Positions 1 to 26,838 of a stretch of 26,838 nucleotides of DNA are shown here, in pieces. Under the pieces are notes generated by a model that worked only from the letters and a program-made list of their open reading frames with translations, was not told where the DNA came from and searched no databases. Where the stretch lies: IMG/VR virus record IMGVR_UViG_2537562220_000008; one strand, given 5' to 3'. The stretch's first letter is position 1, and the number at the start of each line of letters is the position of its first letter. Position numbers and translations under genes: made by a program. Origin of the DNA: a virus (lineage: Duplodnaviria > Heunggongvirae > Uroviricota > Caudoviricetes).

Positions 1-128
1 GTAAAACAGCCAGCGCTGGCGCGATTTAGCCCCGACATAGCCCCACTGTTCGTCCATTTCCGCGCAGACGATGACGTCACTGCCCGGCTGTATGCGCGAG
101 GTTACCGACTGCGGCCTGAGTTTTTTAA
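1..128 (-). CDS. insB: IS1 InsB' transposase region, 5' part only (truncated by window edge)
   Basis: Position follows from IS1 organisation (insB' entered by -1 frameshift at the A6C motif at 120-128); not listed in the ORF track because it has no stop inside the window. Confidence 0.5.
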
Positions 129-377
129 GTGACGTAAAATCGTGTTGAGGCCAACGCCCATAATGCGGGCTGTTGCCCGGCATCCAACGCCATTCATGGC
201 CATATCAATGATTTTCTGGTGCGTACCGGGTTGAGAAGCAGTGTAAGTGAACTGCAGTTGCCATGTTTTACGGCAGTGAGAGCAGAGATAGTGCTGATGT
301 CCGGCAGTGCTTTTGCCGTTACGCACCACCCCGTCAGTAGCTGAACAGGAGGGACAGCTGATAGAAACAGAAGCCAC
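102..377 (-). CDS. insA: IS1 InsA transposition regulator
   Basis: 91-aa [46 protein letters not shown]... matches IS1 InsA as I recall it; it starts 55 nt inside the IS1 end. Confidence 0.85.
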
Positions 378-432
378 TGGAGCACCTCAAAAACACCATC
401 ATACACTAAATCAGTAAGTTGGCAGCATCACC

Positions 433-1196
433 CAAAGCCCTGACGATCAACATCGACCATTACGGTGGCATTCGGTTTATTGCCTGTCAGATAATAATAA
501 TCAACAACCGTCATACCCTGGGTATATTTCCCCTGTGTTTCCACGCCAACCCAGCGCTCAACAGAGGTAAATAACTCCGGTTTCAACAGCCAGGCGATGG
601 TGCATGGGTCATGCAGTGGTGCGCCGACAAAGCCCCATTTTTCGTCTTTATGATATTCGAGGAAGAAATCCAGCAGTTCGGCAACAATGGTTGAAACAGG
701 GTTGCCAATCGCGCGGAAACGCTCAGTGTCTTCAACGTGGATTTGTGCTTTGTGAGTAACATCCAGACCGGCCATCACCACCGGGATCCCTGACTGGAAG
801 ACAATTTCTGCCGCTTCCGGGTCAACGTAAATATTAAATTCAGCCGCAGGCGTCCAATTACCCAGCCCCATTGCGCCGCCCATAATCACGATACGGGCAA
901 TTTTGCTATGCAGTTCCGGATGGCTATTGAGCAGCAAGGCAACGTTAGTTTGCGGTCCGGTAGACACAATCGTGACAGGTTCCGCACTTTCGCGCAGCGT
1001 TTTCGCCATCAGCTCTACCGCCGTACAGTTTTGCGGTGCGAACGTCGGTTCCGGTAATGCCGGGCCATCCAGACCGCTTTCGCCGTGCACATTGTCCGCG
1101 ATAATCAACTCACGCATTAACGGTTTTACCGCACCGCCTGCTACCGGAATATCGGTGCGATTAAGCAAGGTCAGCATACGCAGAACATTGCGTAAG
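433..1196 (-). pseudogene. rihA: ribonucleoside hydrolase RihA, internal fragment missing both ends
   Basis: ORF 428-1177 ([35 protein letters not shown]...) matches the nucleoside hydrolase RihA from about residue 50 onward as I recall it. The C-terminus is replaced by IS1 (stop lies inside the IS1 repeat); the N-terminal 50 or so codons are absent, with reading-frame identity lost near 1196 and an in-frame stop upstream. Confidence 0.65.
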
Positions 1197-1274: not shown

Positions 1275-1847
1275 TTACATTTCAGGTTGCGTTATGACAG
1301 TCCCAACAGGGTGATAGCGGTAGATCGTTGACAGTCCAATATCATAGATAATTGCCAGCCGCTTTCTGTCATACCCTTTCTGGAGCAATCTTGCGATCTG
1401 CTCATGCTGCTCCTTCGTCAGTTTCGGGCGACGTCCTCCAACTCTTCCTTGTGCTCGCGCAGCAGCCAGTCCTGCCAGCGTGCGCTCAACTATCAGTTCA
1501 CGCTCCATTTCTGCCAGTGCACCCATCATATGAAAAAAGAACCTTCCCATCGGAGTGCTGGTATCGATTGAATCCGTCAGACTGCGAAAATTGACACCTT
1601 TTGCGCGTAGCTCTTCTGTGAGAGCAATGAGGTGTTTCATTCTTCTACCCAACCGATCCAGCTTCCAGACCACCAATGTATCCCCTCTTTTAAGGCACTT
1701 TAAAGCGCGTTTCAGGCCTGGTCGTTCCGACTTGGTTCCGCTCATTTTGTCCTCAAAAATCTGTTCACATCCTGCGCACATTAATGCATTGCGTTGCAAA
1801 TCTATGTTTTGGTCATTTGTTGACACACGTATGTAGCCAATCAGCAT
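1275..1847 (-). CDS. Serine DNA invertase, Gin/Pin/Hin/Cin family
   Basis: 190-aa protein starting [34 protein letters not shown]... with the resolvase/invertase N-terminal catalytic motif (YIRVSTNDQ) and a C-terminal helix-turn-helix region; ATG at 1847 preceded by AAGGGAG. The ORF-track start at 1976 is an upstream in-frame artefact. Confidence 0.9.
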
Positions 1848-2113: not shown

Positions 2114-2431
2114 GTTGATACAGGACGTAAGTTGCTGTCCGCACAAGGGGCAACGCTGTTAAGAACAGCAATGCTGGATTATTATAACCAGGACACTACG
2201 GGAACCTCGGGGATAGTCGGCATGGGATTCAACAATGAAGATTCCATTACAGACCTTCGTGAGGGCAGCTTTAAAATGCCGGACGGGACAACATTCAGCG
2301 ATCCTGTCGTGGCAATGTCAGACAATGGTATGCAGGCTACTATTCTGACCTCTATCAGAAGCGGGTATGCGAAGGGTATCACTGTCAGACCCCGTAGCAT
2401 TGCACTTAATTACATTGTGAGGGCAGTTTAA
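1919..2431 (+). CDS. Alternative tail-fibre C-terminal cassette (Sv'-like), promoterless in the present orientation
   Basis: Its N-terminal 65 aa are near-identical to an internal segment of the tail fibre (3052-4317); its C-terminus differs but ends with the same NYIVRA motif; directly followed by a tail-fibre assembly gene. Confidence 0.7.
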   Translation: MGEGSALPVGVPVPWPTATPPAGWLKCDGRAFTKEQYPVLARVYPTLRLPDLRGEFIRGWDDGRKVDTGRKLLSAQGATLLRTAMLDYYNQDTTGTSGIVGMGFNNEDSITDLREGSFKMPDGTTFSDPVVAMSDNGMQATILTSIRSGYAKGITVRPRSIALNYIVRAV

Positions 2432-3045
2432 TGAGTAACACTGCAGTTCTGGATGAAAACGGTATCGCCACTGTAGCGGGCGATATCACTGTATATCACT
2501 ATGACGAGGAAACCCGGGAATACACCTCATCCTCTGTGGAGTATCTCGCCCTTGGGGTGGGTACTCCGGCACATTCGTGCGCCGATGCACCGCCGGAGGC
2601 AATTTCGGGTTACGTGGTTTGCCGGACTGCCACGCTGAACGGGTGGGAGCATGTGCCTGATCACCGCGGCGAGACGGTATACAGCACGGAGAACGGTAAC
2701 CCTGTTCTGATTACCCAACCGGGTGATTACCCGGCGGACACCACCACAAAACAGCCAGCCACGCCATGGGATACCTGGAACGGTGAGGCGTGGGTAACCG
2801 ATACTGAACGGCAGCGAGCCGCAGAACTGGAGGTTGCCAGACAGCAACGCCAGCAACGGGTGAAACAGGCGATGGCGTCAGTCGATCTTATCAACCTCAA
2901 ACTGCGTGCTGGTCGCAGTCTGACACCAGAAGAAACGGCAAAACTGAACGCCGTGCTGGATTATATCGACGAGCTGAACGCACTGGATATCAGCACGGCA
3001 CCTGAAATCAGCTGGCCGGAAGCGCCACTGGCACTTGCCAGTTGA
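2431..3045 (+). CDS. Tail fibre assembly protein (Tfa/U-like chaperone)
   Basis: 204-aa protein whose C-terminus (...NLKLRAGRSLTPEETAKLNAVLDYIDELNALDISTAPEISWPE) has the conserved Tfa motif; start overlaps the Sv' stop (TAATG). Confidence 0.85.
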   Translation: MSNTAVLDENGIATVAGDITVYHYDEETREYTSSSVEYLALGVGTPAHSCADAPPEAISGYVVCRTATLNGWEHVPDHRGETVYSTENGNPVLITQPGDYPADTTTKQPATPWDTWNGEAWVTDTERQRAAELEVARQQRQQRVKQAMASVDLINLKLRAGRSLTPEETAKLNAVLDYIDELNALDISTAPEISWPEAPLALAS

Positions 3046-3051
3046 ACGGTA

Positions 3052-4317
3052 TCACGCCGCCCTCACGATATAGTTAAACGCGATATTGCGGGGGCGGGTT
3101 ATGTTAAAGAATGCTCCGTTTAATTCGGCTTTTGCGCGACTGTTTGTTCCACCCAGAATTACGTACCACAAATAATCGCTACGGTAATTCCCCGCAAACA
3201 CCTTATCGCCGCCATAGTCAATATTATTTCCGTTACTCATGTACGAGATATCAAGCGAAGAATCGTTATCGTCATGACCGCCGACCAGTGTACCTTTCTG
3301 CCATGAAAGCAACTTACGCCCCTCGTCAATCTTGCGCCCGTCGTCCCATCCACGGATAAACTCACCGCGTAAATCGGGAAGACGGAGGGTCGGGTAGACT
3401 CTGGCCAGAACAGGATATTGTTCTTTTGTAAAGGCGCGCCCGTCGCACTTTAACCAGCCTGCTGGCGGTGTGGCGGTGGGCCATGGAACCGGTACACCAA
3501 CAGGCAATGCAGAGCCTTCCCCCAAACCAAGGTAATTGAGGACATCTTTTATACTGCCCTTAGCGATAATAGCGCGACCAATAGCTGTAAGGGTTGCCAG
3601 CGCTGCGCGGTCTGCTCCGGTAAAATAAGGCAACCGATCTGCTGCAGTGGCAAGTCCTGCCAGAGCAGTGAGCGTGGCATCTGCCGGTTGTTTTCCGTTT
3701 GCCAGATCGTATGCAGCCTTGACCGCTTTCGGTGTGGCGGCCAGTATTTCAGACGTGCTGTTGATGGCACTGCTCAGTTGTACGGTGCCTTTTGCCGTCA
3801 GCGAGGCAGCAGGCACTCCCGTTATCTGACTCCACGGGTGAGTGTGGCTGACGGGCGCCTTGCCGGCTGCAAGGTCGTATGCAGCCTTGACCGCCTTCGG
3901 CGTGGCAGCCTCAGTTTCTGATTGACTGTCCGTGGCGCTGCTCAGTTGTACGGTGCCTTTTGCCGTCAGTGAAGCCGCAGGCACTCCCGTTATCTGACTC
4001 CACGGGTGAGTGTGGCTGGCAGGCGCCTTGCCGGCTGCCAGGTCGTATGCAGCCTTGACCGCTTTTGGTGTGGCGGCCAGCGTTTCAGAGGTGCTGTTGG
4101 TGGCACTGCTCAGTTGGGTGAACCCCTTAGCTGTCAGTGTCGCGTCCGGGTGGTTACGGGAACGTACGTGTTCAGCCAGTGACTGTGCGGCTTCCTCCGT
4201 TTTCTTCTTCAGCCATTTCGTCCTGTTTGCCAGTTGCCGGGGGCTCGATTTGATATCCCGTCTGCACCACCCAGAACCGGATCTGATGTCTCCAGTTGAT
4301 AGATATTTTCTTCCCAC
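3052..4317 (-). CDS. Tail fibre protein (P2 gpH / lambda Stf-like), currently expressed variant
   Basis: Contains tandem ...LTAKGTVQLSSATDSQSETEAATPKAVKAAYDLAAGK... repeats, a ...DATLTALAGLATAADRLPYFTG... segment and a collar-like C-terminal region ending NIAFNYIVRAA. Start is uncertain: GTG at 4317 has no Shine-Dalgarno sequence; an ATG at 4330 in another frame is a possible alternative. Confidence 0.85.
   Translation of the reverse strand: MGRKYLSTGDIRSGSGWCRRDIKSSPRQLANRTKWLKKKTEEAAQSLAEHVRSRNHPDATLTAKGFTQLSSATNSTSETLAATPKAVKAAYDLAAGKAPASHTHPWSQITGVPAASLTAKGTVQLSSATDSQSETEAATPKAVKAAYDLAAGKAPVSHTHPWSQITGVPAASLTAKGTVQLSSAINSTSEILAATPKAVKAAYDLANGKQPADATLTALAGLATAADRLPYFTGADRAALATLTAIGRAIIAKGSIKDVLNYLGLGEGSALPVGVPVPWPTATPPAGWLKCDGRAFTKEQYPVLARVYPTLRLPDLRGEFIRGWDDGRKIDEGRKLLSWQKGTLVGGHDDNDSSLDISYMSNGNNIDYGGDKVFAGNYRSDYLWYVILGGTNSRAKAELNGAFFNITRPRNIAFNYIVRAA
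3331..3530. repeat. Inverted repeat arm B (about 200 bp), partner of 1914-2113
   Basis: Reverse-complement identity with 1914-2113, as read directly from the sequence. Confidence 0.85.
3517..3542. promoter_or_regulatory. Candidate gix/hix-like inversion crossover site (right)
   Basis: TTCCCCCAAACC-AA-GGTAATTGAGGA; inner half-site identical to the left site, outer half-site different, as expected for the two ends of an invertible segment. Confidence 0.5.
3640..4150. repeat. 168-bp tandem repeats inside the tail fibre gene (about 3 copies, 56-aa units)
   Basis: The motif tacggtgccttttgccgtcag recurs at 3781 and 3949 (168 bp apart); the protein shows three successive ...TAKG(F/T)(T/V)QLSSA...AATPKAVKAAYDLA... 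units. Confidence 0.8.
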
Positions 4318-8160: not shown

Positions 8161-8360
8161 GGGGCAATATCCTCTTCTGTACGGGCTTCTTCAGCCTCAA
8201 TCACCGGGATCAGTAACAACAGCCCGGAGGGCAGCACCGGCGTGATGGCCACGTGCGGATTGGCGGCAATAATCCGGGGATAGCCCAGCGGGTCACCGTA
8301 GTACTGCCATGCCAGCGAATCCCAGCGCTCTCCGTCACGGGTAACATGTTCAAGAAACAT
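8148..8360 (-). CDS. Tail protein X-like (P2 gpX family)
   Basis: 70-aa protein MFLEHVTRDGERWDSLAWQYYGDP...; ATG at 8360 overlaps the upstream stop (the ORF-track start at 8363 is a GTG one codon earlier). Confidence 0.6.
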   Translation of the reverse strand: MFLEHVTRDGERWDSLAWQYYGDPLGYPRIIAANPHVAITPVLPSGLLLLIPVIEAEEARTEEDIAPWLR

Positions 8361-9244
8361 CACACACTCCTCGTCAGTATTCTGGCGGCCATTGCACTTA
8401 ATCCCGGAGACATGCGGTTGAATGCTGTTCCGACGGCGTTAAGCTGCCCGGAAACGGTATCCAGAGCACCTGCAATATTTCTTTTGTCCACACCACTCAG
8501 CGCAGACTGTGCCTGCTGTACATACGTGGCTGCTTCGCTGGCTGTTCTGGCCAGACTGATGGCATCGGGCATGGATTCAGAGAGTGCGTTAAACGCCGGA
8601 ACACTTTTCCCCAGAGCCCCGGAGATATTACCCAGTCCGCTCATCAGCCCCGGCACACGGGTCAGTGCGACAACGGGGTTATCCTTCATTTTCTGTGTCA
8701 CCCGAACGGCGCTGATAGTGGTCTGGAGTACAGACTGCGCCTGTTTCGCATAGTTGACGCCGTTGCGGATGAACTGCGCCACCCCGGAAGGTGAAGGAAT
8801 GGCACCGGAGACCGCCCCGACACCCGGGAGCTTCGTGCGTATTGCCGGTGGTTGCAGAGGATTTTTCGGGTCACCGGTGTATTCCCGGAGAGACACGGTG
8901 GCACTGACAGCCAGCACGTTGCCGATACTGTCAGTCTGCTCGCTGGTTGCAGTCACATCGGTAATCACGAACCAGCCGCGATAGTCACCGTTGCCGAAGA
9001 CCAGCGCCAGTGCCTGATGGGCTTTCATGGCTGTTCGCAGTCTCGCCAGCTCCACATCGGGTACACAATAATGCTGATGGAAAACCAGAGTTATCTGGAT
9101 TTCGTCCAGCCTGTCGCCGACGAACTGCAGGCCAGGCTTACCCCCGATGCGGGCATGCTCCGCATAATCGACGCCGAACGTGGCCTCGAAGCCGTCCCAG
9201 TAGGTAATCAGCTCAAACTCAATATCACCCAGTACGGCAAACAT
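8360..9244 (-). CDS. Tail protein, P2 gpU-like / Mu N (DNA circularisation)-like
   Basis: 294-aa ORF immediately downstream of the tape measure (ATGA overlap); N-terminal region (...GKPGLQFVGDRLDEIQITLVF...) resembles gpU-type tail proteins as I recall them. Confidence 0.5.
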   Translation of the reverse strand: MFAVLGDIEFELITYWDGFEATFGVDYAEHARIGGKPGLQFVGDRLDEIQITLVFHQHYCVPDVELARLRTAMKAHQALALVFGNGDYRGWFVITDVTATSEQTDSIGNVLAVSATVSLREYTGDPKNPLQPPAIRTKLPGVGAVSGAIPSPSGVAQFIRNGVNYAKQAQSVLQTTISAVRVTQKMKDNPVVALTRVPGLMSGLGNISGALGKSVPAFNALSESMPDAISLARTASEAATYVQQAQSALSGVDKRNIAGALDTVSGQLNAVGTAFNRMSPGLSAMAARILTRSV

Positions 9245-12200
9245 CAGCGGTACTCCTTACGTTGTTTCTGAGCAAGCAGACGCTCCAGCATTTTTTCCAG
9301 CTCATGCAGACTCATATTCAGGGCACCAGTCAGTCCTGCAGGCGCTGTGGTTTCCCTGCCATTGAGGAAAAACTGAGGATTAAAGCTGACCTGGATACCA
9401 CCAGACGTTCCACCGCCGGTTGCAGCTGCACCACGGCCTGAATATCCGGCAGCCAGGATTTCAGGCGAGGGGATACGGGGAACATCCGGTGTCATCTCAT
9501 TTGCCAGACGTTGCCCTGGTAAAATCGATGCCCGGGTGGAGAGCGGAATAGCGGGCATGGAAGACAAACTATTGATTACGGCTCCGATCGCATTTTTAGC
9601 AGACGACATAAACCCATTGATATCGGGCAACGGCATACTGAAGCGAACACCTGAAGTGTTATCCCGTATTTCTGGCCCCTGAATGCTCACGGGCATTTTG
9701 GGGAGCAGTTCACTGGCCATTCGCTGCCCGGCCAGAGCTGCAAGCGGAGTGGTCCGCTGCAGGCCAATGGCGGCCCCCTGCGCGATATTGTCACCAAAGC
9801 CCATAAACACGCGGCTCGGCGAATGAATGCCCAGCTTTTCGCTGAACCAGCCACTGATGCTGTCGCCCATTCCGGTTACACTGGATTTGAGCGACTCCCA
9901 TTTGTTTTTGATACCGTTAATCAGACCATCGACAAGATGGCCACCGAAGTCGGTAAACTTTGCCGGCAGATCAACACCAAGATATTTCAGCGCAGCTGCA
10001 AAGGCTTTATAGAGCAGACCTGCCGGCGACCAGTTAATCAGCAGCTTACCAGTTCCCGCGATACCGCCGTTAAAGGCTTCCTGAATGTCAGCCCAGCACT
10101 GTTTAAACCAGCTACTGATGCTGTCACCCATTCCGGTTACACTGGATTTGAGCGACCCCCATTTGTTTTTGATACCGTTAATCAGACCGTCGATAAGATG
10201 GCCACCGAAGTCGGTGAACTTTGCCGGCAGAGTAACGCCGAAATATTTCAGCGCAGCCGCAAAGGCTTTATAGAGCAGGCCTGCCGGCGACCAGTTAATC
10301 AGCAACTTACCAGTTCCCACAATGCCGCCGTTAAAGGCTTCCTGAATGTCAGCCCAGCGCTGTTTAAACCAGCTACTGATGCTGTCACCCATTCCGGTTA
10401 CACTGGATTTGAGCGACCCCCATTTGCTTTTGATACCGTTAATCAGACCGTCGATAAGATGGCCACCGAAGTCGGTGAACTTTGCCGGCAGAGCAACGCC
10501 GAAATATTTCAGCGCAGCCGCAAAGGCTTTATAGAGCAGGCCTGCCGGCGACCAGTTAATCAGCAACTTACCAGTTCCCACAATGCCGCCGTTAAAGGCT
10601 TCCTGAATGTCAGCCCAGCGCTGTTTAAACCAACCACTGACAGCCCCCCAGTTGCGGTAGATAAGGTAAGCTGCTGCCGCGACAGCGGTGATAACGAGAC
10701 CGATGGGATTCATCATCAGCGCTCGCCCAATCCAGAGAACGGCACGTGCAGCGCTCATAAAACCGCGAACGAGGCTGCCCGCCAGAACTTTGCTGAGTTT
10801 CAGTCCTCCGCTGGTCAGTCGGCTGAATCCAGTGACAAGCCAGCGTAATTTGCCACCTTCTCCGAGTGCGGTAGTCAGTCGATGCCAGTTGGTCCGGAGT
10901 AAAACAGCATTTTTCCAGACACTTACAAAGGGGGAAATAAGGAGATTCAGCCCCAGTTTGAGACCAACAGTCGCTATCTTAATCGCAAGGAGCGCACTGA
11001 TGAGCTTAAAAGCCCCACTGACAAATTGCGGGTGAGTCGCTACCCAGTGTTTTGCCCCCTGAATGAGTGGAAGCAGTTCCTGAGTCAAAGAAATAAAAGA
11101 TGGAGCTAATTGATCGCCCAGCGTAATTGCCAGATCGCGACTGCTGACCATAAGTGTTTTAGTGGCTTCAAGGGGAGATTTCAGTCGCTGATCGTAAGCA
11201 CTGGCAAGCAAATCGTTATCCGCAGCCCTGAGAGCACCGGCACGGATCTCTCGATATCTGTCCATGTTGGCCAGCATCGGGCGGATAAATGCCATGACCT
11301 GCATATCCGCGAACATATCACCCAGACCAAAGTTTTTCGCCAGAGCCTGAAGTGCCTCATCTCTTGCCGTATCATTCTTTATTTTCATGGCGGATTTGAA
11401 GCCGGCCAGCGCTTCGGGGCTTTTGGCATTGAGGTAACGTTCTATAACACTCAACATCCCTTCAATCGGAGAGATCCCCGCAGCCTTATAACTCGCAATA
11501 GATCCCTGCAAATCAATACCCAGATCAGCAAACTGTTTCTGAGTATCGCGGGCAAAAATTTTGGTAAGAAAGTTTTTAAAATTATTGGCTGCTTCGTCGG
11601 TGGAACCTGCACCGATTTTTGCTATCTGGAGACTGGCCCCGATTTCAGCAACAGCCTCTTTTCCACTGGCAATACCCGCCATCATTGGGGCCAGGGACTG
11701 CATCCACTTGACCTGATCCGGGATTTCAAATGACCCCTGGTCACCGGCATAAGCCATAATATTCTGAACGGCACCAAAATCTCTGGCCGCACCTTTCAGG
11801 GAGTTTTGCCAGACTGCGGCCACTTTTGCCCAGTCCTGAGCAGACGTGCGTGTTGCCGTTGCCGCGCGGGCAATATCCGGCATCAGAAAACCGATATCTG
11901 ACACATTATCAATATTGTCGCTGATGAGTGAACCCACCGCCTCCTGCAGCTCATCCTGATACTGATTGTATTTAAGCGCCCAGCCTTTTATCTGTCCGGC
12001 AAGTGCATCCCGCGTTTTATTGTCATATTTTGCGGTGATCGACATATCAATCATTTTGTCCTGAAAAGACATGGACTGCTGAACGGCAGGGGAAACCGTA
12101 TGATAAACAGTCTGTGCCATGCCATACGCTTCAATCCCCTGACCATACAGCGCCATGCGGTTAGCTTTCAGCGCATCACTGGTAGCGGATGCCGCTGACA

Positions 12201-12456
12201 GACGGCGCTGCTGGCGCTCAATTTGCTCCATGGTGCGGCTTACCCGCAGCAGCTCGCTGTTGAGATGCTGCATCCGGGAAGAACCCAGTTGACCATAACG
12301 TTCTGTTGCACGGGTTAAAGCGTTCTGACGTTCCTGCAGGCGGCGTGAGGTATCGCTCAGGGAATCAAGCGCACGGCGGGGACCGCTCATTGCAGAACGG
12401 AATGTGCTGCCAATCATCCCGCCGATAACAACGCCGACTGAAAACTGTCCCGACAT
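9244..12456 (-). CDS. Tail tape measure protein
   Basis: 1070-aa ORF, the largest in the cluster, helix-rich, downstream of the tail chaperone gene and containing internal tandem repeats; ATG at 12456 preceded by GGAGG. Confidence 0.85.
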   Translation of the reverse strand: MSGQFSVGVVIGGMIGSTFRSAMSGPRRALDSLSDTSRRLQERQNALTRATERYGQLGSSRMQHLNSELLRVSRTMEQIERQQRRLSAASATSDALKANRMALYGQGIEAYGMAQTVYHTVSPAVQQSMSFQDKMIDMSITAKYDNKTRDALAGQIKGWALKYNQYQDELQEAVGSLISDNIDNVSDIGFLMPDIARAATATRTSAQDWAKVAAVWQNSLKGAARDFGAVQNIMAYAGDQGSFEIPDQVKWMQSLAPMMAGIASGKEAVAEIGASLQIAKIGAGSTDEAANNFKNFLTKIFARDTQKQFADLGIDLQGSIASYKAAGISPIEGMLSVIERYLNAKSPEALAGFKSAMKIKNDTARDEALQALAKNFGLGDMFADMQVMAFIRPMLANMDRYREIRAGALRAADNDLLASAYDQRLKSPLEATKTLMVSSRDLAITLGDQLAPSFISLTQELLPLIQGAKHWVATHPQFVSGAFKLISALLAIKIATVGLKLGLNLLISPFVSVWKNAVLLRTNWHRLTTALGEGGKLRWLVTGFSRLTSGGLKLSKVLAGSLVRGFMSAARAVLWIGRALMMNPIGLVITAVAAAAYLIYRNWGAVSGWFKQRWADIQEAFNGGIVGTGKLLINWSPAGLLYKAFAAALKYFGVALPAKFTDFGGHLIDGLINGIKSKWGSLKSSVTGMGDSISSWFKQRWADIQEAFNGGIVGTGKLLINWSPAGLLYKAFAAALKYFGVTLPAKFTDFGGHLIDGLINGIKNKWGSLKSSVTGMGDSISSWFKQCWADIQEAFNGGIAGTGKLLINWSPAGLLYKAFAAALKYLGVDLPAKFTDFGGHLVDGLINGIKNKWESLKSSVTGMGDSISGWFSEKLGIHSPSRVFMGFGDNIAQGAAIGLQRTTPLAALAGQRMASELLPKMPVSIQGPEIRDNTSGVRFSMPLPDINGFMSSAKNAIGAVINSLSSMPAIPLSTRASILPGQRLANEMTPDVPRIPSPEILAAGYSGRGAAATGGGTSGGIQVSFNPQFFLNGRETTAPAGLTGALNMSLHELEKMLERLLAQKQRKEYR
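9853..10635. repeat. Three tandem 261-bp (87-aa) repeats inside the tape measure gene
   Basis: Protein shows three near-identical units SWFKQRWADIQEAFNGGIVGTGKLLINWSPAGLLYKAFAAALKYFGV.LPAKFTDFGGHLIDGLINGIK.KWGSLKSSVTGMGDSIS; the three near-identical antisense ORFs at 9827, 10085 and 10346 are a by-product. Confidence 0.85.
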
Positions 12457-12505
12457 AGTGGTTAACCTCCGGGGAAGGTGAAAAGACGTGAGGGGATAAC
12501 GCAGA

Positions 12506-12526
12506 ACAGCCGCTACTGGCGGCTGT
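12506..12526 (-). terminator. Stem-loop between chaperone and tape measure genes (possible attenuator or mRNA structure)
   Basis: ACAGCCGC-TACTG-GCGGCTGT: 8-bp perfect stem with 5-nt loop, between the chaperone stop (12532) and the tape measure start (12456); only a weak U-tract follows. Confidence 0.3.
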
Positions 12527-12531
12527 CTGTA

Positions 12532-12640
12532 CTATGATTTGTCGCCGTACTCGCTTTTGATTTGCTCTTCAGCCTGCTCCAGCCACATCTCCAGATCGTC
12601 AGTATCGAGGGCATCAATCTCCCCCGGCTGAAACCGGAAC
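12532..12640 (-). CDS. Tail chaperone C-terminal extension (E'-like) reached by an apparent +1 frameshift
   Basis: The +1 frame continues past the chaperone stop into a well-formed acidic segment ...QPGEIDALDTDDLEMWLEQAEEQIKSEYGDKS; upstream of the overlap that frame is implausible, so an independent gene is unlikely. Confidence 0.5.
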
Positions 12641-12949
12641 CATCTCGCCAGCAGCCCCTGCGCCTGCGTCAGCGCCCTGGTTGCTCTCACCCATCCCCGT
12701 GATGAGCTGAAATCGTTTCTGTAACTGCAGGTAATCAGCCAGATCCATATTGTCGAGATCCTCCGGGAGAAGACCAGTACTGCGGGCAATCAGCGGTTCG
12801 TCCCAGTCTGCCGGGTTTTTGCTGATTTTGCGCACCTGCTTCAGGTCTTTTACCGTCAGGCGTTTCAGTTCAACCAGCTCAATTCTGGTGCCTGCAGCAG
12901 TGGTGAAGGGATAAGACAATTTAAAAGTATCGGATGGGGTCTGTGACAT
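12614..12949 (-). CDS. Tail assembly chaperone (P2 gpE-like)
   Basis: 111-aa ORF directly upstream of the tape measure with an overlapping downstream frame; ATG at 12949 preceded by AGGAG. Confidence 0.7.
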   Translation of the reverse strand: MSQTPSDTFKLSYPFTTAAGTRIELVELKRLTVKDLKQVRKISKNPADWDEPLIARSTGLLPEDLDNMDLADYLQLQKRFQLITGMGESNQGADAGAGAAGEMVPVSAGGD

Positions 12950-13024
12950 GATTGTGCTCCTGTGTAAGTTCAGGGCAGTATGTCGGGAGAAGCGCGTGAC
13001 GGATATTAAAGGAGATTAAGAAGA

Positions 13025-13330: not shown

Positions 13331-13852
13331 TCAGCCCCCGATATTGATACGGTAGTCAGTCAGTTGATCAACACCGCCGACCCGGAAGATGTTGGCCAGA
13401 TAGTCCAGTTGCAGCAGCTCTTCCCCATCCAGTACCTGTCTGATATACGTGCAGGTGAAGCTACTGGAGAACTCGGCGTTCTCGTGCTGTTTGAACGTCC
13501 CCAGCGGGTTCTTCTTGAACATAATCGTCAGGAAGGTGACCAGCGGGATTTCGTCAATCAGCCCCTGCGAGCTGTAGCGCTGGACGCTGGAACGACACTG
13601 CAGTGCCAGCGACCTGTACGGGTTCGCGGCAGACAGCATCGCATCGCGGTAAAAGCTGTTCCATTTGATTTCGCCTTCCAGTTTGTCAAAACCAGCCGGG
13701 AGTTCCACCTTACCCACCATCCCCAGCGCCTTGTGTTCCTGCATAATCATGGAGACATCGGGGAGTTTAACTTCCTCAGCCCGTCCCAGCAGGTTAGTAC
13801 CATCCAGATAGATGTTGGCATTCGTGATGCGGTTTATCTCAATCTTTGACAT
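13331..13852 (-). CDS. Tail tube protein (P2 FII / Mu M-like)
   Basis: 173-aa ORF immediately downstream of the sheath gene (ATGA overlap), the canonical sheath-tube order. Confidence 0.75.
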   Translation of the reverse strand: MSKIEINRITNANIYLDGTNLLGRAEEVKLPDVSMIMQEHKALGMVGKVELPAGFDKLEGEIKWNSFYRDAMLSAANPYRSLALQCRSSVQRYSSQGLIDEIPLVTFLTIMFKKNPLGTFKQHENAEFSSSFTCTYIRQVLDGEELLQLDYLANIFRVGGVDQLTDYRINIGG

Positions 13853-15279
13853 CAGTTGCCCCCTTTCAGGGTTAACAGGTATTCCGAGGTGATCTCAGTC
13901 TCAAACGTCAGTCGCTCCAGCGGCGGTGGTGGCGTATATTTGTAGCTCAGCAACAGGTGCCCGGCGGCCAGCTCCGTCTCCGGATTGCGGGCCGGATCAA
14001 ACCAGCAACGGAAGCCCAGTACCGCACCATCACCAGTCATTTTGCGACCGTAGGCGTTGACCGACTCCGTCAGTGCATCAATCAGCGCCTGAGTAATCGG
14101 CATGTCGATGTACTGCTGGCTGAAATAACGAATGGACTCGTTGATCACATCACCGGTGCGGCGAACGTTCTCAAAGTTACGCATATGGGTGACCGTTGGC
14201 CATGCTGCCGTCCGGTTACCCCACAGACGAAGGCCGCTGCCGTAACTGCTGAATACCGTGGTGATCCCCTGTTCGTTAAGCAGGTTCACCTCACTCTGCG
14301 GGTCATCAATCATCGCGGACAGCTGGCGCTCCACGCCGGTGATCCCCAGAATCTCCTGATTGGAGGATGACCACCAGTAGCCCTTGTCCAGATCGACTCT
14401 GGCACGCAGACCTGCTGCACGCTGGCTGAGCGGCTCCAGACGCTCTGTGTTTGTCACCGGGTCATATACCTTCACATGCGGATAGCACAGACGGACGCGG
14501 TCGGAGCTGGTATTGAAGTTGATGGTGCCTTCCGGGCCACGACCTGCCAGAGCCTGTGCAAAGGTGGTACCGACAGGCGCATCAATGTAGGTTACCGCGC
14601 CCAGCTTCTCTGCCATGGCGATAAGCTCAACTGCGACACTCTTCTGGGTGCAGAACACCGGCGCAATCAGAATTTTGGCGAAATAGCCGTACAGGTTGAA
14701 GCTGTCGTTAAGCAGCTTCATGCCGGTTCGGTTTCCGGCGCTGTTCACCCCGCCGATGATGTCCGCCGCAGTCACCTTCGACGGGTCCGCGTACTCATAG
14801 CTCACCTTCACGCTGCCACCGGCCTCAATAGCCTTGCCCAGGTTCGTGAGCACACCCGCCTGCGCATCAACACGGTAGTCCGTGTTCGCCGTGTGGGTGG
14901 TGCTGCCTTCACTGTTTTTCACCACCACATTAGCGACAACCGGATGCGCCAGTCTGGCCTGCCCTGTCGATTTGTCAAAGGTAACCACCTCATCCTCGAT
15001 CGCCGTTTTATGTTTCGCCGGGTCGAGGACGTTAATGACCAGAACGGTGCCTGCACCATGGTCATAAATCGCATCCAGCGCCTGCGGAATGGTAAAGCCG
15101 GTGAACTGGCTGCCAAATGCCGCTGCGTCTTTCTCAGACAGGCACTGTACCAGCGTATTGACATCCCCCATCGGGGCGGTACCAATCAGGCCAATAACGG
15201 CAGATTTCACCGTTTTAACCGGGCGGGCACCGTTTTCCACCTCAATGGTTTCGGGACCATGCAGATAGTTAGCTGCCAT
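13852..15279 (-). CDS. Contractile tail sheath protein (P2 FI / Mu L-like)
   Basis: 475-aa ORF; ATG at 15279 preceded by GGAGG; size and position typical of sheath proteins. Confidence 0.8.
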   Translation of the reverse strand: MAANYLHGPETIEVENGARPVKTVKSAVIGLIGTAPMGDVNTLVQCLSEKDAAAFGSQFTGFTIPQALDAIYDHGAGTVLVINVLDPAKHKTAIEDEVVTFDKSTGQARLAHPVVANVVVKNSEGSTTHTANTDYRVDAQAGVLTNLGKAIEAGGSVKVSYEYADPSKVTAADIIGGVNSAGNRTGMKLLNDSFNLYGYFAKILIAPVFCTQKSVAVELIAMAEKLGAVTYIDAPVGTTFAQALAGRGPEGTINFNTSSDRVRLCYPHVKVYDPVTNTERLEPLSQRAAGLRARVDLDKGYWWSSSNQEILGITGVERQLSAMIDDPQSEVNLLNEQGITTVFSSYGSGLRLWGNRTAAWPTVTHMRNFENVRRTGDVINESIRYFSQQYIDMPITQALIDALTESVNAYGRKMTGDGAVLGFRCWFDPARNPETELAAGHLLLSYKYTPPPPLERLTFETEITSEYLLTLKGGN

Positions 15280-21837: not shown

Positions 21838-23432
21838 CAGAATCCCCCCAGCATACGGGCCGCCTGACGACGACGGCGTGAGCTTGCCTTCACCGGCCCT
21901 TTGTTAATTTCACGGCTGGCGAAATACGCCAGCGCCAGTGCGATGGCTGAATCCCCGTGGCGTTTACCACCGTCAGCCTTTGCTTTTGAGCGTTGCTCCG
22001 GTACGCGGGGGACACCGTTCACCACCTGAACGGCCCGCAGGTCATCCAGTGTGTCTTCATCCTTTGGTAAGTCCACCAGGTTGCCGTCTTCCAGTGCAGC
22101 TTTGACCGGAGGCATATGCTCCCGGTACCAGCCTTCGGTTGGCATCACCTGCTGAACCCGGCCGGAGCCGTAGCGCTGCATGGCGTATTCAGCCAGATAG
22201 GCACCATTACCACGGGCATCAAACGCTGCACCCAGCAGACCGGGCAGGCCATCCATCAGATACCAGGTGATTTGCTCCTGCTGTCTGAACGGCACGTTAC
22301 GCAGCTCCAGTACGAATGGCACGCGTCGTACCAGGTTCTTCTCCTGCAGCAGGGGATAGTCCACCGACAAATCACCGCTACGGCCAAAGTCGCGCCCCAG
22401 GAAAGAGCGGGCATCAGTGGGGAGTGCCTCCAGCAATGGTTTCAGATACTCATCAAGCCAGTCCTGCGTCTCGCGGAAGCGAACCTCATCAGACAGCAGT
22501 TCATAACCTTCCTTGCAGGTCAGACGCAATACCGGCGTATCAGCGGACATGCGGGACTCTATCAGGGCACGGGACAGCCAGGCACCGCCACCGTTGGCCG
22601 GAATACAGTCAAGCTCTTCGGATGCGCCGGCACCGTAGAATTTGTACACCGATGCCATCCAGGCCTGCTCGGATGCCTCCGACCATTCCTTCCCGGTGCG
22701 CAGACAGACGCGCCGGAACAGCCCCTCAGATACGGCTTCCCGGAAAGTGATGCGATGTATGCTGCCTCCCTGACGTCCGGCACGGATATCCCCGATAAGC
22801 GTATTGAACGGATTGTCGTCACCGTCATGGGTGGAGATAACGCGTACCTTTCCCCCCCAGATAAGCATCGCCAGCGCCGCTTTCAGCAGTTCGTCCAGTT
22901 GCTCATGGAACGCCGCTTCGTCGATAACAATAATACCCTGACGGCCACGCAGGTTAGACGGGCGGCTGGAGAGCGCAACAATACGAAAGCCGGAGTCAGG
23001 AAATTTGATGGTGTAAGTCTTGATGTGTTTGTCGTCGTCGTCCTCTTCCCAGAATCCTTCTTCAATTTCACTGGCCGCATAGTTGAATGCCCGTGCCCAC
23101 ATCGCACACGCCTGAATGTATTCGACGGTCATGTCCTGGTTATAAGCGATGTAATACACATTCATCCCGCCTGCTGGCGCAGAAGAGGCGGCGGTCAGTA
23201 CGTTATCGGATGCCTCAGCCCATGTAATACCGGTACGACGGCTCTTTTCTATCACCTTAAGCGGAGAGGTGTCTGCCACCCAGCGCTGCTGGTAAGGCAA
23301 CAGAACGGGAGGGGCATCCAGCGCCGAGGTATCAGGCAAAACGGGAGCAAGGTTATTCCTCCCGTCCATGGGACTCATCCCTTCGGGGCCGCCGCCAGCG
23401 GCGTTTAAAATCACTCCGGATGATTTTGTCAT
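21837..23432 (-). CDS. Terminase large subunit (Mu gp28-like)
   Basis: 531-aa ORF following the small-terminase-like gene (ATGA overlap at 23432); acidic-rich nuclease-like C-terminal half. Confidence 0.75.
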   Translation of the reverse strand: MTKSSGVILNAAGGGPEGMSPMDGRNNLAPVLPDTSALDAPPVLLPYQQRWVADTSPLKVIEKSRRTGITWAEASDNVLTAASSAPAGGMNVYYIAYNQDMTVEYIQACAMWARAFNYAASEIEEGFWEEDDDDKHIKTYTIKFPDSGFRIVALSSRPSNLRGRQGIIVIDEAAFHEQLDELLKAALAMLIWGGKVRVISTHDGDDNPFNTLIGDIRAGRQGGSIHRITFREAVSEGLFRRVCLRTGKEWSEASEQAWMASVYKFYGAGASEELDCIPANGGGAWLSRALIESRMSADTPVLRLTCKEGYELLSDEVRFRETQDWLDEYLKPLLEALPTDARSFLGRDFGRSGDLSVDYPLLQEKNLVRRVPFVLELRNVPFRQQEQITWYLMDGLPGLLGAAFDARGNGAYLAEYAMQRYGSGRVQQVMPTEGWYREHMPPVKAALEDGNLVDLPKDEDTLDDLRAVQVVNGVPRVPEQRSKAKADGGKRHGDSAIALALAYFASREINKGPVKASSRRRRQAARMLGGF

Positions 23433-23974
23433 GTGGCAATCCCCAGAATCTCGCGACGAAGCGCCTGTACTGCGTCGCTTGACAGTCCCCCCTTACGGGC
23501 AATTTTCTCGGCGTTGCTGGCTGCCTGCTGCGCTCTGGCCCGTACTTCAGACTGGAACTTTTTGAGGTTGACGGACGCGCGGGACAGCGTAGCCACATTC
23601 TTCGCCACCTTCGACAGCAGGGCCACGCGTTCTTTAGGATCGACTTCGCCTTCTTCCGCCTCCTGCAACTGGACAATACTCTCGAACAGCTCGGTCTGAA
23701 TAAGGGCTATCACAGCCTCCGAACGCGCATCCTGATCGTCTGCTGCGCCTTCGGTCAGCATGCGGGCCGCTTCTGTTGCCGCACGGATAGCACCATAGCG
23801 GCGCTCAATCTTCTGTCCATAGCGATGGATAGCGGATTTGCTGATGACGTACCCCCGCTCACGCAACAGGGACTCCAGCTCGTTATACCCGCTGAAGCCG
23901 GATTCAGTCAGCGCCCGTTCAAGCCAGCGGCGCACGTCTTCCGGCAGCTTTTCTATTGTGCTGCGTCTGGCCAT
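23429..23974 (-). CDS. Terminase small subunit-like DNA-binding protein (Mu gp27-like)
   Basis: 181-aa protein MARRSTIEKLPEDVRRWLERALTESGFSGYNELESLLRERGYVISKSAIHRYGQ... with an N-terminal helix-turn-helix-like region, immediately upstream of the large terminase. Confidence 0.65.
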   Translation of the reverse strand: MARRSTIEKLPEDVRRWLERALTESGFSGYNELESLLRERGYVISKSAIHRYGQKIERRYGAIRAATEAARMLTEGAADDQDARSEAVIALIQTELFESIVQLQEAEEGEVDPKERVALLSKVAKNVATLSRASVNLKKFQSEVRARAQQAASNAEKIARKGGLSSDAVQALRREILGIAT

Positions 23975-24285
23975 TATTCACTCCAGTACTTTTCCGGGCG
24001 GGCAATACCCGGACCACATTCCACGGTGTATTCCACCAGGTCTACGCCGAGGCGGGTCAGGTCAGCAAACCAGTCGCCAGAAGGTTTTTTCTCCAGCTCA
24101 ACCATTTTACGGTCAGCCAGATAATCCAGTTCGCGGCGCAGTTCCAGCGGTGTGGTGTCCGGGTAGATGGCACGGGACACATCCAGCAGCAGCGTCTCGC
24201 TGGCGGTGTAAGGGCGGGTCTTGTTCAGGGCAACCAGCAGACTCCAGCGCAGGGATTCGCGGCGTACCCGGGTAATATCGACCAT
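23974..24285 (-). CDS. Small phage protein, Mu gp26-like by position
   Basis: 103-aa ORF with start and stop overlapping its neighbours (TAATG junctions). Confidence 0.5.
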   Translation of the reverse strand: MVDITRVRRESLRWSLLVALNKTRPYTASETLLLDVSRAIYPDTTPLELRRELDYLADRKMVELEKKPSGDWFADLTRLGVDLVEYTVECGPGIARPEKYWSE

Positions 24286-24611
24286 TATTGACCTCCGGTA
24301 TTGCGGTACTGCTGTACCACTTCCAGTTTGTTATAAAGCGCGTCCAGTTTGGCCTCAATGACTGTCTGGCCACGGATATAATCCTCTCGACGGACATAAT
24401 TCAGCGGTAAATCCGCTTTAAATCGCATAAATTCTTTTTCCAGCTCGCCCCAGTTGGAGGCGGATTGTTGCAGGGCCTGTTCAAGGGAGGCGAATCGTGC
24501 CGCCTGGCGTTCTTCTGTTTTACTGAACAACCATTTGGCGAGCCCTCCCACAAACCCCATGAAGGTGAGCAGAAAACTCACCACCGTCCAGAATTCAACC
24601 TGCAGTGTCAT
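24285..24611 (-). CDS. Small membrane-anchored protein, Mu gp25-like by position
   Basis: 108-aa ORF with one N-terminal hydrophobic helix (FWTVVSFLLTFMGFVGGLAKWLF) followed by a helical region. Confidence 0.5.
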   Translation of the reverse strand: MTLQVEFWTVVSFLLTFMGFVGGLAKWLFSKTEERQAARFASLEQALQQSASNWGELEKEFMRFKADLPLNYVRREDYIRGQTVIEAKLDALYNKLEVVQQYRNTGGQ

Positions 24612-25258
24612 TTCTGTAATCCTTCCCGTTCATCCAGCAGCGCGTTTATCTGGTTCCGCCAGCGACGACATTGCCATGCGTTGTCGATGATGTTGGCGAG
24701 AACGTCACGCTGGGAGACACCCGAATCGCGTAACCGGGTGTCAGTGGTTTCAGGTTGCCCGGTCGCTGTGCCAGAGCGGGTGCCAGTGGCGGCAACTGAG
24801 TCTGAATGACCGGGGTCGACGGATGCGTTGTCATATCCGAGTGCGGCGTTGTACTGGCGCACGAAACCGCGAGTAAACACGCACTCAATGGGATGACTCT
24901 TACCTTTTTCATCAATCCAGCGCTGTGTGACATCGTTAATTTGCCCCTGTAGTTGTTTGTTCCGGCTCTCCAGTTGAGCAATCTGCTCAAGATAACCGGC
25001 TTCAGCCCGCTGCCCGGCGGCCACCTGCTCCTGATACCGTCTGGCCCAGGCCCGCAGCGCAGCATTCTCAAGCGTTGCCTGCTCCGTTTTGTACGCGTCA
25101 AATGCTGACTGCAACTGACTTAGCGCGGTATCACCGTCACGCTTTGCAGAGTCATGACCACTTCTGTATCCCATGGCATACAGGCCGACCAGAAAGGCAT
25201 TGATAAGAATGGCCAGCAGAATGCCGCGCCACGGCAGCTTTTTAACCAGATGCCACAC
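24608..25258 (-). CDS. Inner-membrane spanin (Rz-like)
   Basis: N-terminal transmembrane segment (GILLAILINAFLVGLYAMG), coiled-coil-like periplasmic region, and an embedded +1 lipoprotein ORF; start taken as the GTG at 25258 with GGGGAGG 8 nt upstream (the ORF track extends to 25360). Confidence 0.6.
   Translation of the reverse strand: MWHLVKKLPWRGILLAILINAFLVGLYAMGYRSGHDSAKRDGDTALSQLQSAFDAYKTEQATLENAALRAWARRYQEQVAAGQRAEAGYLEQIAQLESRNKQLQGQINDVTQRWIDEKGKSHPIECVFTRGFVRQYNAALGYDNASVDPGHSDSVAATGTRSGTATGQPETTDTRLRDSGVSQRDVLANIIDNAWQCRRWRNQINALLDEREGLQK
24646..24912 (-). CDS. Outer-membrane lipoprotein spanin (Rz1-like), fully embedded in the Rz-like gene
   Basis: Internal start gives MKKVRVIPLSACLLAVSC followed by a proline-rich segment (TTPHSDMTTHPSTPVIQTQLPPLAPALAQRPGNLKPLTP); signal peptide plus lipobox-like Cys. 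Confidence 0.6.
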   Translation of the reverse strand: MKKVRVIPLSACLLAVSCASTTPHSDMTTHPSTPVIQTQLPPLAPALAQRPGNLKPLTPGYAIRVSPSVTFSPTSSTTHGNVVAGGTR

Positions 25259-25982
25259 AACTGCTGCCTCCCCATGTGAGATATCGCGGTGCCAGTTCGT
25301 GCAGGATGCGCTGCGGATAATGGCGGTTCTCCCGCCAGCTGGCCGCATTGCGTCCGGCATTCACCGTGGCGACATGTCCGAACCAGCGGGTGCTGTCCAG
25401 ACCTTTCTGTGATGCAAGCCGCCTGTCCCGTTGTACCCAGCCCAGACCACCGTTATAGCCCGACAGTGTCATGGCCATACGCTCGCAGTCACTGGCGGCG
25501 CTGACACGCTGCCACAGCCAGCGGTCATAGCTGACCAGCGCCCGGATAGCCCATGCCGGATTAAACGGCTCACGACTGCTCAGCATCGGTATCAACTGGC
25601 TTATCCAGTCGGCAGTGGCAGGCATGAACTGCGCCAGTCCCTGAGCGCCAGCCGGCGAGATCGCATCAGGTCGCCAGCCGCTTTCCTGATGCAGTTGCGC
25701 GGCGAAATCGGCCACCGGCGCAGACAGTCCCCATTCAAGCCGGGCATTACGGATCACATCATCGCGATACTGCAGCGCAGCCTGCGGAGGTTGTGCTGCG
25801 CATGCCTGGCTGAAAAAGCCGCCACACCAGAGCAACATTGCGACAAAGAATACCCATGCCATATGAACCAGAAAGGTCCCGGCGCGGACTGACAGGCGTT
25901 CGGTTCTGATGAAGACCCGAAAGGCTTCGAAAGCCAGTTTCAGGGACATGCATACAATCCAGGTGATCTGCGGCCAGTTCAT
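25242..25982 (-). CDS. Endolysin, lytic transglycosylase (SLT domain), with N-terminal hydrophobic signal or SAR-like segment
   Basis: Contains ...AAQLHQESGWRPDAISPAGAQGLAQFMPATADWI... (catalytic E-S motif of SLT-type transglycosylases) and an N-terminal hydrophobic stretch (MAWVFFVAMLLWCGGFF); start may be at an internal Met. Confidence 0.7.
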   Translation of the reverse strand: MNWPQITWIVCMSLKLAFEAFRVFIRTERLSVRAGTFLVHMAWVFFVAMLLWCGGFFSQACAAQPPQAALQYRDDVIRNARLEWGLSAPVADFAAQLHQESGWRPDAISPAGAQGLAQFMPATADWISQLIPMLSSREPFNPAWAIRALVSYDRWLWQRVSAASDCERMAMTLSGYNGGLGWVQRDRRLASQKGLDSTRWFGHVATVNAGRNAASWRENRHYPQRILHELAPRYLTWGGSSCVASG

Positions 25983-25984
25983 GA

Positions 25985-26335
25985 TTAAAGCCCCATCGCA
26001 ACAGCCAGGCAGACCGCTGCAACAATCAGTGCACGGCGGATTAACGCAGCAGAAAACACCAGGTGAAGGCCGGTCTGTACCGGGAAACGCCCTTCAGCCA
26101 TCAGCCTGTCGTCATGTTTCAGGTACTGACCGGGACGGGCTTTGGGGAAGAGCGAACGGTAAAGCCAGTAACCCAGCACTGCTGCCAGCGTGATGAGTGC
26201 CAGCTTGTAGATCACAACAGGCAGCTGCTGTGGTGAGACCAGAGCGATGGTGCCCAGCAACAGCACTGAGGTCAGCAGCCAGCCGCTGAGGCGAGGTTTT
26301 TTAACAGGGGGAATGAATTTTTTCAGGTTTTTCAT
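25985..26335 (-). CDS. Holin-like small membrane protein (3 predicted transmembrane helices)
   Basis: 116-aa protein from the ATG at 26335 (AAGGAG 6 nt upstream); hydrophobic segments GWLLTSVLLLGTIALV, VVIYKLALITLAAVLGYWLY and LIVAAVCLAVAMGL; stop is 2 nt before the endolysin start. Confidence 0.55.
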   Translation of the reverse strand: MKNLKKFIPPVKKPRLSGWLLTSVLLLGTIALVSPQQLPVVIYKLALITLAAVLGYWLYRSLFPKARPGQYLKHDDRLMAEGRFPVQTGLHLVFSAALIRRALIVAAVCLAVAMGL

Positions 26336-26338
26336 GTG

Positions 26339-26361
26339 TGTCTCCTTATCTGGTGGAGACA
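26339..26361 (-). other. Hairpin overlapping the Shine-Dalgarno sequence of the holin-like gene
   Basis: mRNA would read UGUCUCC-ACCAGAUAA-GGAGACA (7-bp perfect stem, 9-nt loop); the 3' arm contains the GGAG of the ribosome-binding site. Confidence 0.4.
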
Positions 26362-26393
26362 GCATCACAAATACAGGGCGCGAAGGATTTTAA
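26355..26393 (-). promoter_or_regulatory. Bipartite motif TTAAAATC-N23-CTGTCTCC upstream of the holin-like gene (candidate late promoter, copy 2)
   Basis: Minus strand reads TTAAAATCcttcgcgcCCTGtATTTgtgatgCTGTCTCC, ending 19 nt before the ATG; same boxes and spacing as the copy upstream of gene I. Confidence 0.5.
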
Positions 26394-26434
26394 AGCGCGT
26401 TAAGAGAGCCGGGGATACGGGATGTGCAGGATAA

Positions 26435-26838
<404 letters not shown>

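Follow-up and report, generated by a model that had tools for sequence, protein, structure and literature searches.

One, two, or three copies of an 87-codon unit in the tape measure gene of apparently Mu-like Escherichia coli prophages

Katsura and Hendrix reportedly described lambda gpH as a tail-length ruler in 1984. In phage TP901-1, a 347-amino acid (aa) deletion in the tape measure protein reduced tail length from 118 to 65 nm, or by 0.15 nm per residue (Mahony et al. 2016, PMC5099701), a value that has been used to predict the tail of an Escherichia coli prophage (PMC9928086); for contractile tails, PMC13585406 gives T4 gp29 as the ruler example (citing Abuladze et al. 1994). Tandem repeats have already been described as a source of tape measure length variation (PMC3271669, PMC13585406, and PMC5099701), among them periodic 11-aa (or 11-11-18) Trp/Phe repeats (Belcaid, Bergeron & Poisson 2011, PMC3271669), while tape measure diversity is touched on only in passing in PMC5913663. 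Here we describe a 261-bp repeat in the tail tape measure gene of a prophage carried by IMG/VR record IMGVR_UViG_2537562220_000008, a 26 838-nt stretch of tailed-phage DNA (hereafter, the window). As a whole, the findings are best explained if the repeat array is a genuine in-frame variable-number tandem repeat (VNTR), changed in copy number by recombination and with a ruler consequence for the tail, an explanation that we hold to be very probably correct. The array leaves the current understanding of tape measure proteins unchanged. It is an ordinary kind of length variation and a fresh example of a known phenomenon; its particular value lies in a natural series of unit numbers and in direct evidence of change within lysogens.

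The protein shares its family (PF10145) and its gene position with the lambda gpH, TP901-1, and T4 gp29 rulers, in which in-frame deletions and duplications change the tail in proportion, by ∼0.15 nm per residue. The changes in those systems were engineered in the laboratory, whereas here a natural series of 1, 2, and 3 units occurs in wild contractile-tailed prophages of E. coli, known from sequence. The repeats of PMC3271669 resemble ours in being tandem repeats of tape measure proteins whose number varies among related phages by duplication and loss and whose boundaries are not fixed; there, however, the repeat is an 11-aa motif, and here it is an 87-aa block at 93–99% DNA identity. The closest deposited phage, Escherichia phage PhiKM (PQ738613, genus Bcepmuvirus), is 97.7% identical to the window in DNA over the gene, which it names “tape measure protein Mup42”, and likewise has Mu-like head and P2-like tail genes around it; it differs in that a sequencing gap interrupts its record precisely where the repeat lies. 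Our literature search turned up no article describing tandem in-frame duplication within the tape measure gene of a prophage, and for PhiKM or this repeat it returned only unrelated phiKMV-type matches.

The array (Table 1) was scored by Tandem Repeats Finder at 1445, with period 261, 3.0 copies, 95% matches, and 0% indels, and a repeat-family search placed within it three copies of 274 nt each, every copy offset from the next by 261 nt (family D1); a chance origin is out of question. An earlier note on this DNA had reported three near-perfect 261-bp repeats at 9853–10635, which is this array cut to exactly 3 × 261 nt. The repeats are real and in frame, but the description as near-perfect holds only for units 1 and 2, which are 2 nt apart (99.2% identity; both changes nonsynonymous, A47T and S69N), and fails for unit 3, which is 18 nt from each of the other two (93.1% identity, 7–8 aa). 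As the period is 3 × 87 nt, every gain or loss of a unit keeps the reading frame. The repeated unit comes directly after a hydrophobic, transmembrane-like segment (aa 583–600). At the edges of the array is a 13-nt short homology, TCAGTGGTTGGTT upstream and TCAGTGGCTGGTT downstream, with 12 of the 13 nt in common, and the single unit of a divergent allele (L006) is bordered by a similar pair, TCAGTAGCTGGTT and TCAGTGACTGGTT; this homology is a plausible substrate for the first duplication.

Table 1. Positions of the array, the tail genes around it, and other features of the window
Feature	Position	Strand	Remarks
Tail tape measure protein gene	9244–12456	minus	1070 aa, intact open reading frame, longest of region
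Whole array	9845–10640	minus	3.05 head-to-tail copies, 261 bp (87 codons), in frame
Unit 1	10372–10632	minus	aa 609–695, type alpha
Unit 2	10111–10371	minus	aa 696–782, type alpha
Unit 3	9850–10110	minus	aa 783–869, type beta
Upstream 13-nt short homology, TCAGTGGTTGGTT	10628–10640	minus	5′ edge of array, read from sequence
Downstream 13-nt short homology, TCAGTGGCTGGTT	9845–9857	minus	3′ edge of array, partner of 10628–10640
Antisense open reading frame	9823–10848	plus	341 aa
gpU-like tail protein gene	8360–9244	minus	Directly downstream of tape measure; Pfam PF06995 Phage_P2_GpU, E = 3.2e-38
Tail assembly chaperone gene	12614–12949	minus	Directly upstream of tape measure; Pfam PF10109 Phage_TAC_7, E = 5.5e-21
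Tail tube gene	13331–13852	minus	Pfam Phage_tube, E = 2.9e-53
Tail sheath gene	13852–15279	minus	Pfam Phage_sheath_1, E = 2.2e-29
IS1 InsA-sized open reading frame	102–377		
Gin/Hin-type serine recombinase gene	1275–1847		Resolvase domain, E = 6e-51
Invertible tail fibre segment	1911–3533		
Inverted repeats of that segment	1911–2139 and 3305–3533		229 nt, 96% complementary
Fibre assembly gene	2431–3045		Within invertible segment
Remainder of tail fibre in another frame	3052–4317		
Second tandem repeat	3700–4116		Period 168 nt, 2.5 copies, 85% matches
C run in tail fibre gene	4239–4243		5 long
Start of tail fibre gene	4343	minus	

That the array lies inside a tape measure gene, as had been proposed from the sequence alone, is a point on which Pfam, PHROG, and gene position agree. 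The protein matches Pfam PF10145 PhageMin_Tail (E = 2e-20, 73.9 bits, with a cut-off of 33.2), phrog_28 (E = 2e-134), and about 15 other tape measure PHROGs, and its gene follows the sheath, tube, and tail assembly chaperone genes and is in turn followed by the gpU-like gene, in an order that recurs in the record of E. coli ZH063.

The tape measure gene is found in 636 of 5426 complete E. coli genomes (about 12%), and copy number was read from 60 evenly spaced records among these 636. The gene spans 3213 bp with 3 units in 12 records, 2952 bp with 2 units in 40 (and in one further, truncated copy), and 2691 bp with 1 unit in 2; three records hold a divergent lineage with 1 unit, and two gave weak partial matches without a unit count, for totals of 12, 41, and 5 records with 3, 2, and 1 copies, respectively. 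The gene flanks are at least 96% identical across the 3213-, 2952-, and 2691-bp forms. The same series appears among proteins: a collection of 5.8 billion holds full-length forms of 1070 aa (17 clusters), 983 aa (43), and 896 aa (10), which are the alleles with 3, 2, and 1 units. Protein length was used for copy number because counting units by regular expression gives too low a number for some alleles, owing to substitutions in the WFKQ.W motif.

The comparison of copy number among relatives that the earlier note had proposed thus yields 1, 2, and 3 copies, and no allele with at least four occurs in the 60-genome sample or among the 120 best of 814 protein matches. Of those 120 proteins, only P0001, at 1084 aa, exceeds 1070 aa; it has two units and carries another duplication, of 101 aa (EGGKLRW...GTGKLL), that spans the hydrophobic segment. 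Other changes of length in the same tape measure are an in-frame 12-aa duplication (P0093) and an in-frame 68-aa deletion between LGD motifs (P0098). The divergent allele L006 (301–2766) is without a 71-aa segment equivalent to window aa 915–985 and is mosaic, being highly diverged at aa 100–480 and nearly identical to the window from aa 480 to the end, with 64% protein identity overall.

An assembly artefact, which the earlier note had named as the finding that would overturn the triplication, is not borne out, for the three-unit allele of the window is found again in dozens of independent complete genomes, each finished on its own. The 3213-bp form is a single alignment piece in 38 of the 40 best complete-genome matches, which rules such an artefact out. 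Short-read assemblies do break at the array (the PhiKM tape measure carries the remark “coding region disrupted by sequencing gap”, and partial proteins are numerous in the database), as would suit a third copy made by collapse or expansion of the repeat in assembly; yet differences of 2 and 18 nt distinguish the three units from one another, and a second 3-copy allele exists with a different middle unit. Contradicted in these ways, an artefactual third copy is highly improbable. The repeat does cause systematic annotation and assembly errors. In both ZH063 and AVS0969, NCBI annotation treats the gene with 3 units as a pseudogene, yet its frame is open throughout, and RefSeq labels intact 3-unit genes (L001 18448–21213 and L005 301–3513) as “incomplete; partial in the middle of a contig”. 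Such pseudogene labels and assembly breaks can mislead calls of prophage completeness for this widespread element.

VNTRs in bacterial coding genes change by unequal homologous recombination or slippage. The array resembles them in its long near-identical in-frame units, in its chimeras at crossovers, and in a copy number that differs among close relatives; it differs in belonging to a virion structural gene of a prophage, not to a bacterial surface protein. We aligned ten units from five alleles together with the single unit of the divergent L006 and found two unit types, alpha (a; window units 1 and 2) and beta (b; window unit 3), distinguished by 18 diagnostic sites at about 7% divergence. 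The last unit is of the beta type in all six alleles compared. Among 1-copy alleles, L003 reads a and then 17 b, with a crossover between nt 13 and 48, and L004 reads aaaaaa and then b, with a crossover between nt 93 and 114. In L002, which has 2 copies, the first unit reads a, bbbb, and then a, which places a conversion tract at nt 48–67. In the 3-copy allele L005 the middle unit reads bbbb and then a (crossover between nt 53 and 67), while the middle unit of the 3-copy window allele is all a, with no crossover. Because these crossover junctions differ, the two 1-unit alleles and the two 3-unit alleles are each of separate origin. Block-wise chimeras of this kind are the products that repeated unequal homologous crossing-over or gene conversion would be expected to leave, and they indicate that such exchange has probably shaped the array.

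Between alpha and beta there are 10 synonymous and 8 nonsynonymous differences, for a ratio of nonsynonymous to synonymous substitution rates (dN/dS) of 0.22 by the Nei–Gojobori method, so both copies are under protein-level constraint. These differences also bear on which strand owns the repeat. An open reading frame (ORF) on the plus strand (Table 1), tried as its owner and rejected as a by-product of the repeat, spans all three units and is open through the array because the unit has no stop in that frame. It has a marginal Pfam match to IpaB_EvcA (30.6 bits, with a cut-off of 29.9), but the score is summed over repeated short stretches, and the triplication inflates it. Read in the minus-strand frame, half of the differences between alpha and beta occupy third codon positions, which in the plus-strand ORF are first positions, and it is the minus-strand protein that has strong homology (Pfam, PHROG, and protein relatives). 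That the repeat belongs to the plus-strand ORF and not to the tape measure, a reading contradicted by the substitution pattern, has in our judgement a vanishingly small chance of being right.

Mu-like phages insert near-randomly, and the prophages compared here have four different junctions: rihA (the window), ssuB next to pepN, next to aroA, and irp2. A shared junction therefore marks a single ancestral integration. The pepN/ssuB junction is common to ZH063 (3 units) and USVAST219 (2 units), the neighbouring proteins being identical and the two units of USVAST219 being identical to window units 2 and 3; the aroA junction is common to O25b:H4 (2 units) and AVS0947 (1 unit). In these two separate cases same-site prophages are exactly one unit apart, so a unit has been gained or lost in an integrated prophage at least twice. 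What is seen, in sum, is what a recombination-driven VNTR presents: copy number differs between conserved flanks, units are chimeric, and change has taken place at one insertion site. The earlier suggestion of “recent duplication or ongoing homogenisation” is upheld by the 2-nt difference between units 1 and 2, the chimeric units, and the same-site prophages one unit apart.

In the mechanism that we infer for the first duplication, a single ancestral block, bordered by the 13-nt short homology, would have been doubled, and the copies would then have diverged by ∼7% into alpha and beta. Since then, units have very probably been gained and lost again and again by unequal homologous crossing-over and gene conversion, giving the 1-, 2-, and 3-unit alleles, and this gain and loss also takes place in the integrated prophage, as the host chromosome replicates or recombines. 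The sheath (WP_000729834.1) and tube (WP_162832341.1) are identical in compared prophages with 1, 2, or 3 units; with sheath and tube unaltered, no compensating change appears to go with the altered tape measure length.

On the insertion sites themselves, the prophage end at about 1197 cuts rihA, a nucleoside hydrolase gene whose N-terminus is missing, in window 1–1196, where an IS1 InsA-sized ORF is also present. This rihA junction was in none of the complete E. coli genomes of the collection. The L011 prophage is inside the yersiniabactin gene irp2. The scattered insertion sites are consistent with transposition-type integration.

If tape measure length sets tail length at ∼0.15 nm per residue, then one 87-aa unit amounts to ∼13 nm, or roughly three tube rings, and copy number would be expected to change the tail stepwise, by ∼13 nm per unit. 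The natural alleles with 1, 2, and 3 units have the same sheath, tube, and neighbouring tail genes and so offer a test of the ruler model in an apparently Mu-like contractile tail without engineering, and structural genes that change length in situ in prophages bear on the pace at which phage morphology evolves.

Several points weigh against a recombination-changed ruler. The regions of TP901-1 do not all scale simply, and deletions can lower infectivity (PMC5099701), while our literature search found no paper on the morphology of this phage group. The copy-number frequencies come from 60 rows of phylogenetically clustered genomes, many of them of sequence type 131 (ST131). The frame is kept automatically by the 261-nt period, so intact ORFs are no evidence of selection for function. 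An AlphaFold2 model of aa 560–900 is almost all helix, but its mean predicted local distance difference test score (pLDDT) is 41.5 and its predicted template modelling score (pTM) 0.23; with such a mean pLDDT it is too poor for a fold search, and an extended helical conformation of the unit is only putative. The only match to a solved structure is marginal (9m8o_M, the tape measure Gp14 of a Brochothrix siphophage, E = 0.013). Finally, the tail fibre gene of the window is frameshifted, so this prophage copy may not make infectious virions.

Some of these points would also suit a real repeat whose copy number alters the virion slightly or not at all. The array might be a non-ruler segment, membrane-active or folded, given that the unit adjoins the hydrophobic aa 583–600 and that the structure model is of low confidence; or it might drift neutrally in mostly defective prophages, in keeping with a frame that the period preserves by itself and with fibre genes that are frameshifted in the window and annotated as fragmented in O25b:H4 and AVS0947. 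Against such indifference stand the protein-level constraint on alpha and beta, the finding that deletion of a hydrophobic region beside the repeats of TP901-1 shortened its tail as well (PMC5099701), the deposition of the related PhiKM as a phage isolate, and the occurrence of the module in more than one copy in distant tape measure proteins. We consider such indifference unlikely.

A bolder possibility is that the array is an adaptive contingency locus, at which frequent gain and loss of units is selected because it provides tail lengths suiting the thickness of the hosts' capsule or O-antigen. The gains and losses are indeed recurrent and independent, and the TP901-1 authors proposed that repeats ease adaptive length change (PMC5099701), but only three states were seen, with the 2-copy form dominant in the 60-genome sample, and recurrence is expected from homologous recombination alone; selection of this kind seems to us quite improbable. 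We are similarly doubtful of a recombination-driven switch, by which a lysogen population would yield two or three discrete tail lengths and the polymorphism would be kept by host-envelope (capsule or O-antigen) selection. Were it to operate, the same-site prophage pairs one unit apart would show the switch caught in action within ST131 and similar clonal lineages.

The same region of the tape measure is also repeated in the wider family. One 87-aa unit, searched against 1.84 billion representative proteins at E ≤ 0.001, gave 624 matches, of which the 150 best were considered further. They include 92 proteins of at least 700 aa, and 25 of these 92 have 2–4 near-full copies. The multi-copy periods are 76 aa (the commonest), 87, 105, or 113–114 aa, and some proteins repeat half-units only (42–50 aa). 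Adjacent copies within a protein have a median similarity of 51%, as compared to 39% for copies in different proteins. Across the family, this tape measure region has thus undergone recurrent duplication with no fixed boundaries, and the E. coli array is a very recent case of that family-wide duplication.

Two simpler descriptions of the unit were rejected. It is not a classical 11-aa Trp/Phe repeat: in a Fourier analysis of a one-unit version of aa 471–720, the power of W/F and of W/F/Y at period 11 was below the shuffled null, and hydrophobic positions likewise gave no peak above that null. The aromatic residues of the unit are at positions 1, 2, 6, 13, 27, 34, 37, 43, 52, 55, and 71. Nor is it an obvious double of a 43-aa sub-unit, for its halves are not similar (alignment score 21, with a shuffle mean of 20.9).

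As regards the element that carries the gene, the presence of sheath and tube genes implies a contractile tail. The window is 99.5% identical over 19.4 kb to the E. coli ZH063 prophage, whose collinear annotation includes a DUF935 portal, Mu-type head and virion morphogenesis genes, and P2-type baseplate genes. Judged by such gene content, the host element is apparently a BcepMu/Mu-like contractile-tailed prophage of E. coli; its assignment as Mu-like and to Bcepmuvirus draws on similarity to the classified PhiKM, on the Mu-type head genes, and on the several insertion sites. The early region of the prophage, the expected place of any transposase A/B genes, lies outside the window. No RNA families were found in 9000–13000.

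The tail fibre region also varies. In the fibre gene of the window the C run is 5 long, as compared to 6 in ZH063 and USVAST219, and the frame that begins MGNLNETEKW... stops after 45 codons, the remainder continuing in another frame; the shorter run is either an error in sequencing the homopolymer or a genuine change, inactivating or phase-variable. Long inverted repeats (Table 1) enclose alternative fibre C-termini along with the fibre assembly gene, and the serine recombinase gene adjoins the segment so formed, which is invertible and lies in the orientation opposite to that of ZH063 and the same as that of USVAST219. The tail fibre gene contains a second tandem repeat, in the Phage_fiber_2 repeat region. 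Among otherwise near-identical prophages the fibre differs in length (644 aa in ZH063, 531 aa in USVAST219), and the window falls about 600 bp short of ZH063 here. At the other end of the window, similarity to the ZH063 prophage passes from 99.5% to no alignment at 23316–23903 and then to 91.5% at 23904–26488, which indicates a putative mosaic boundary near the small terminase and lysis genes.

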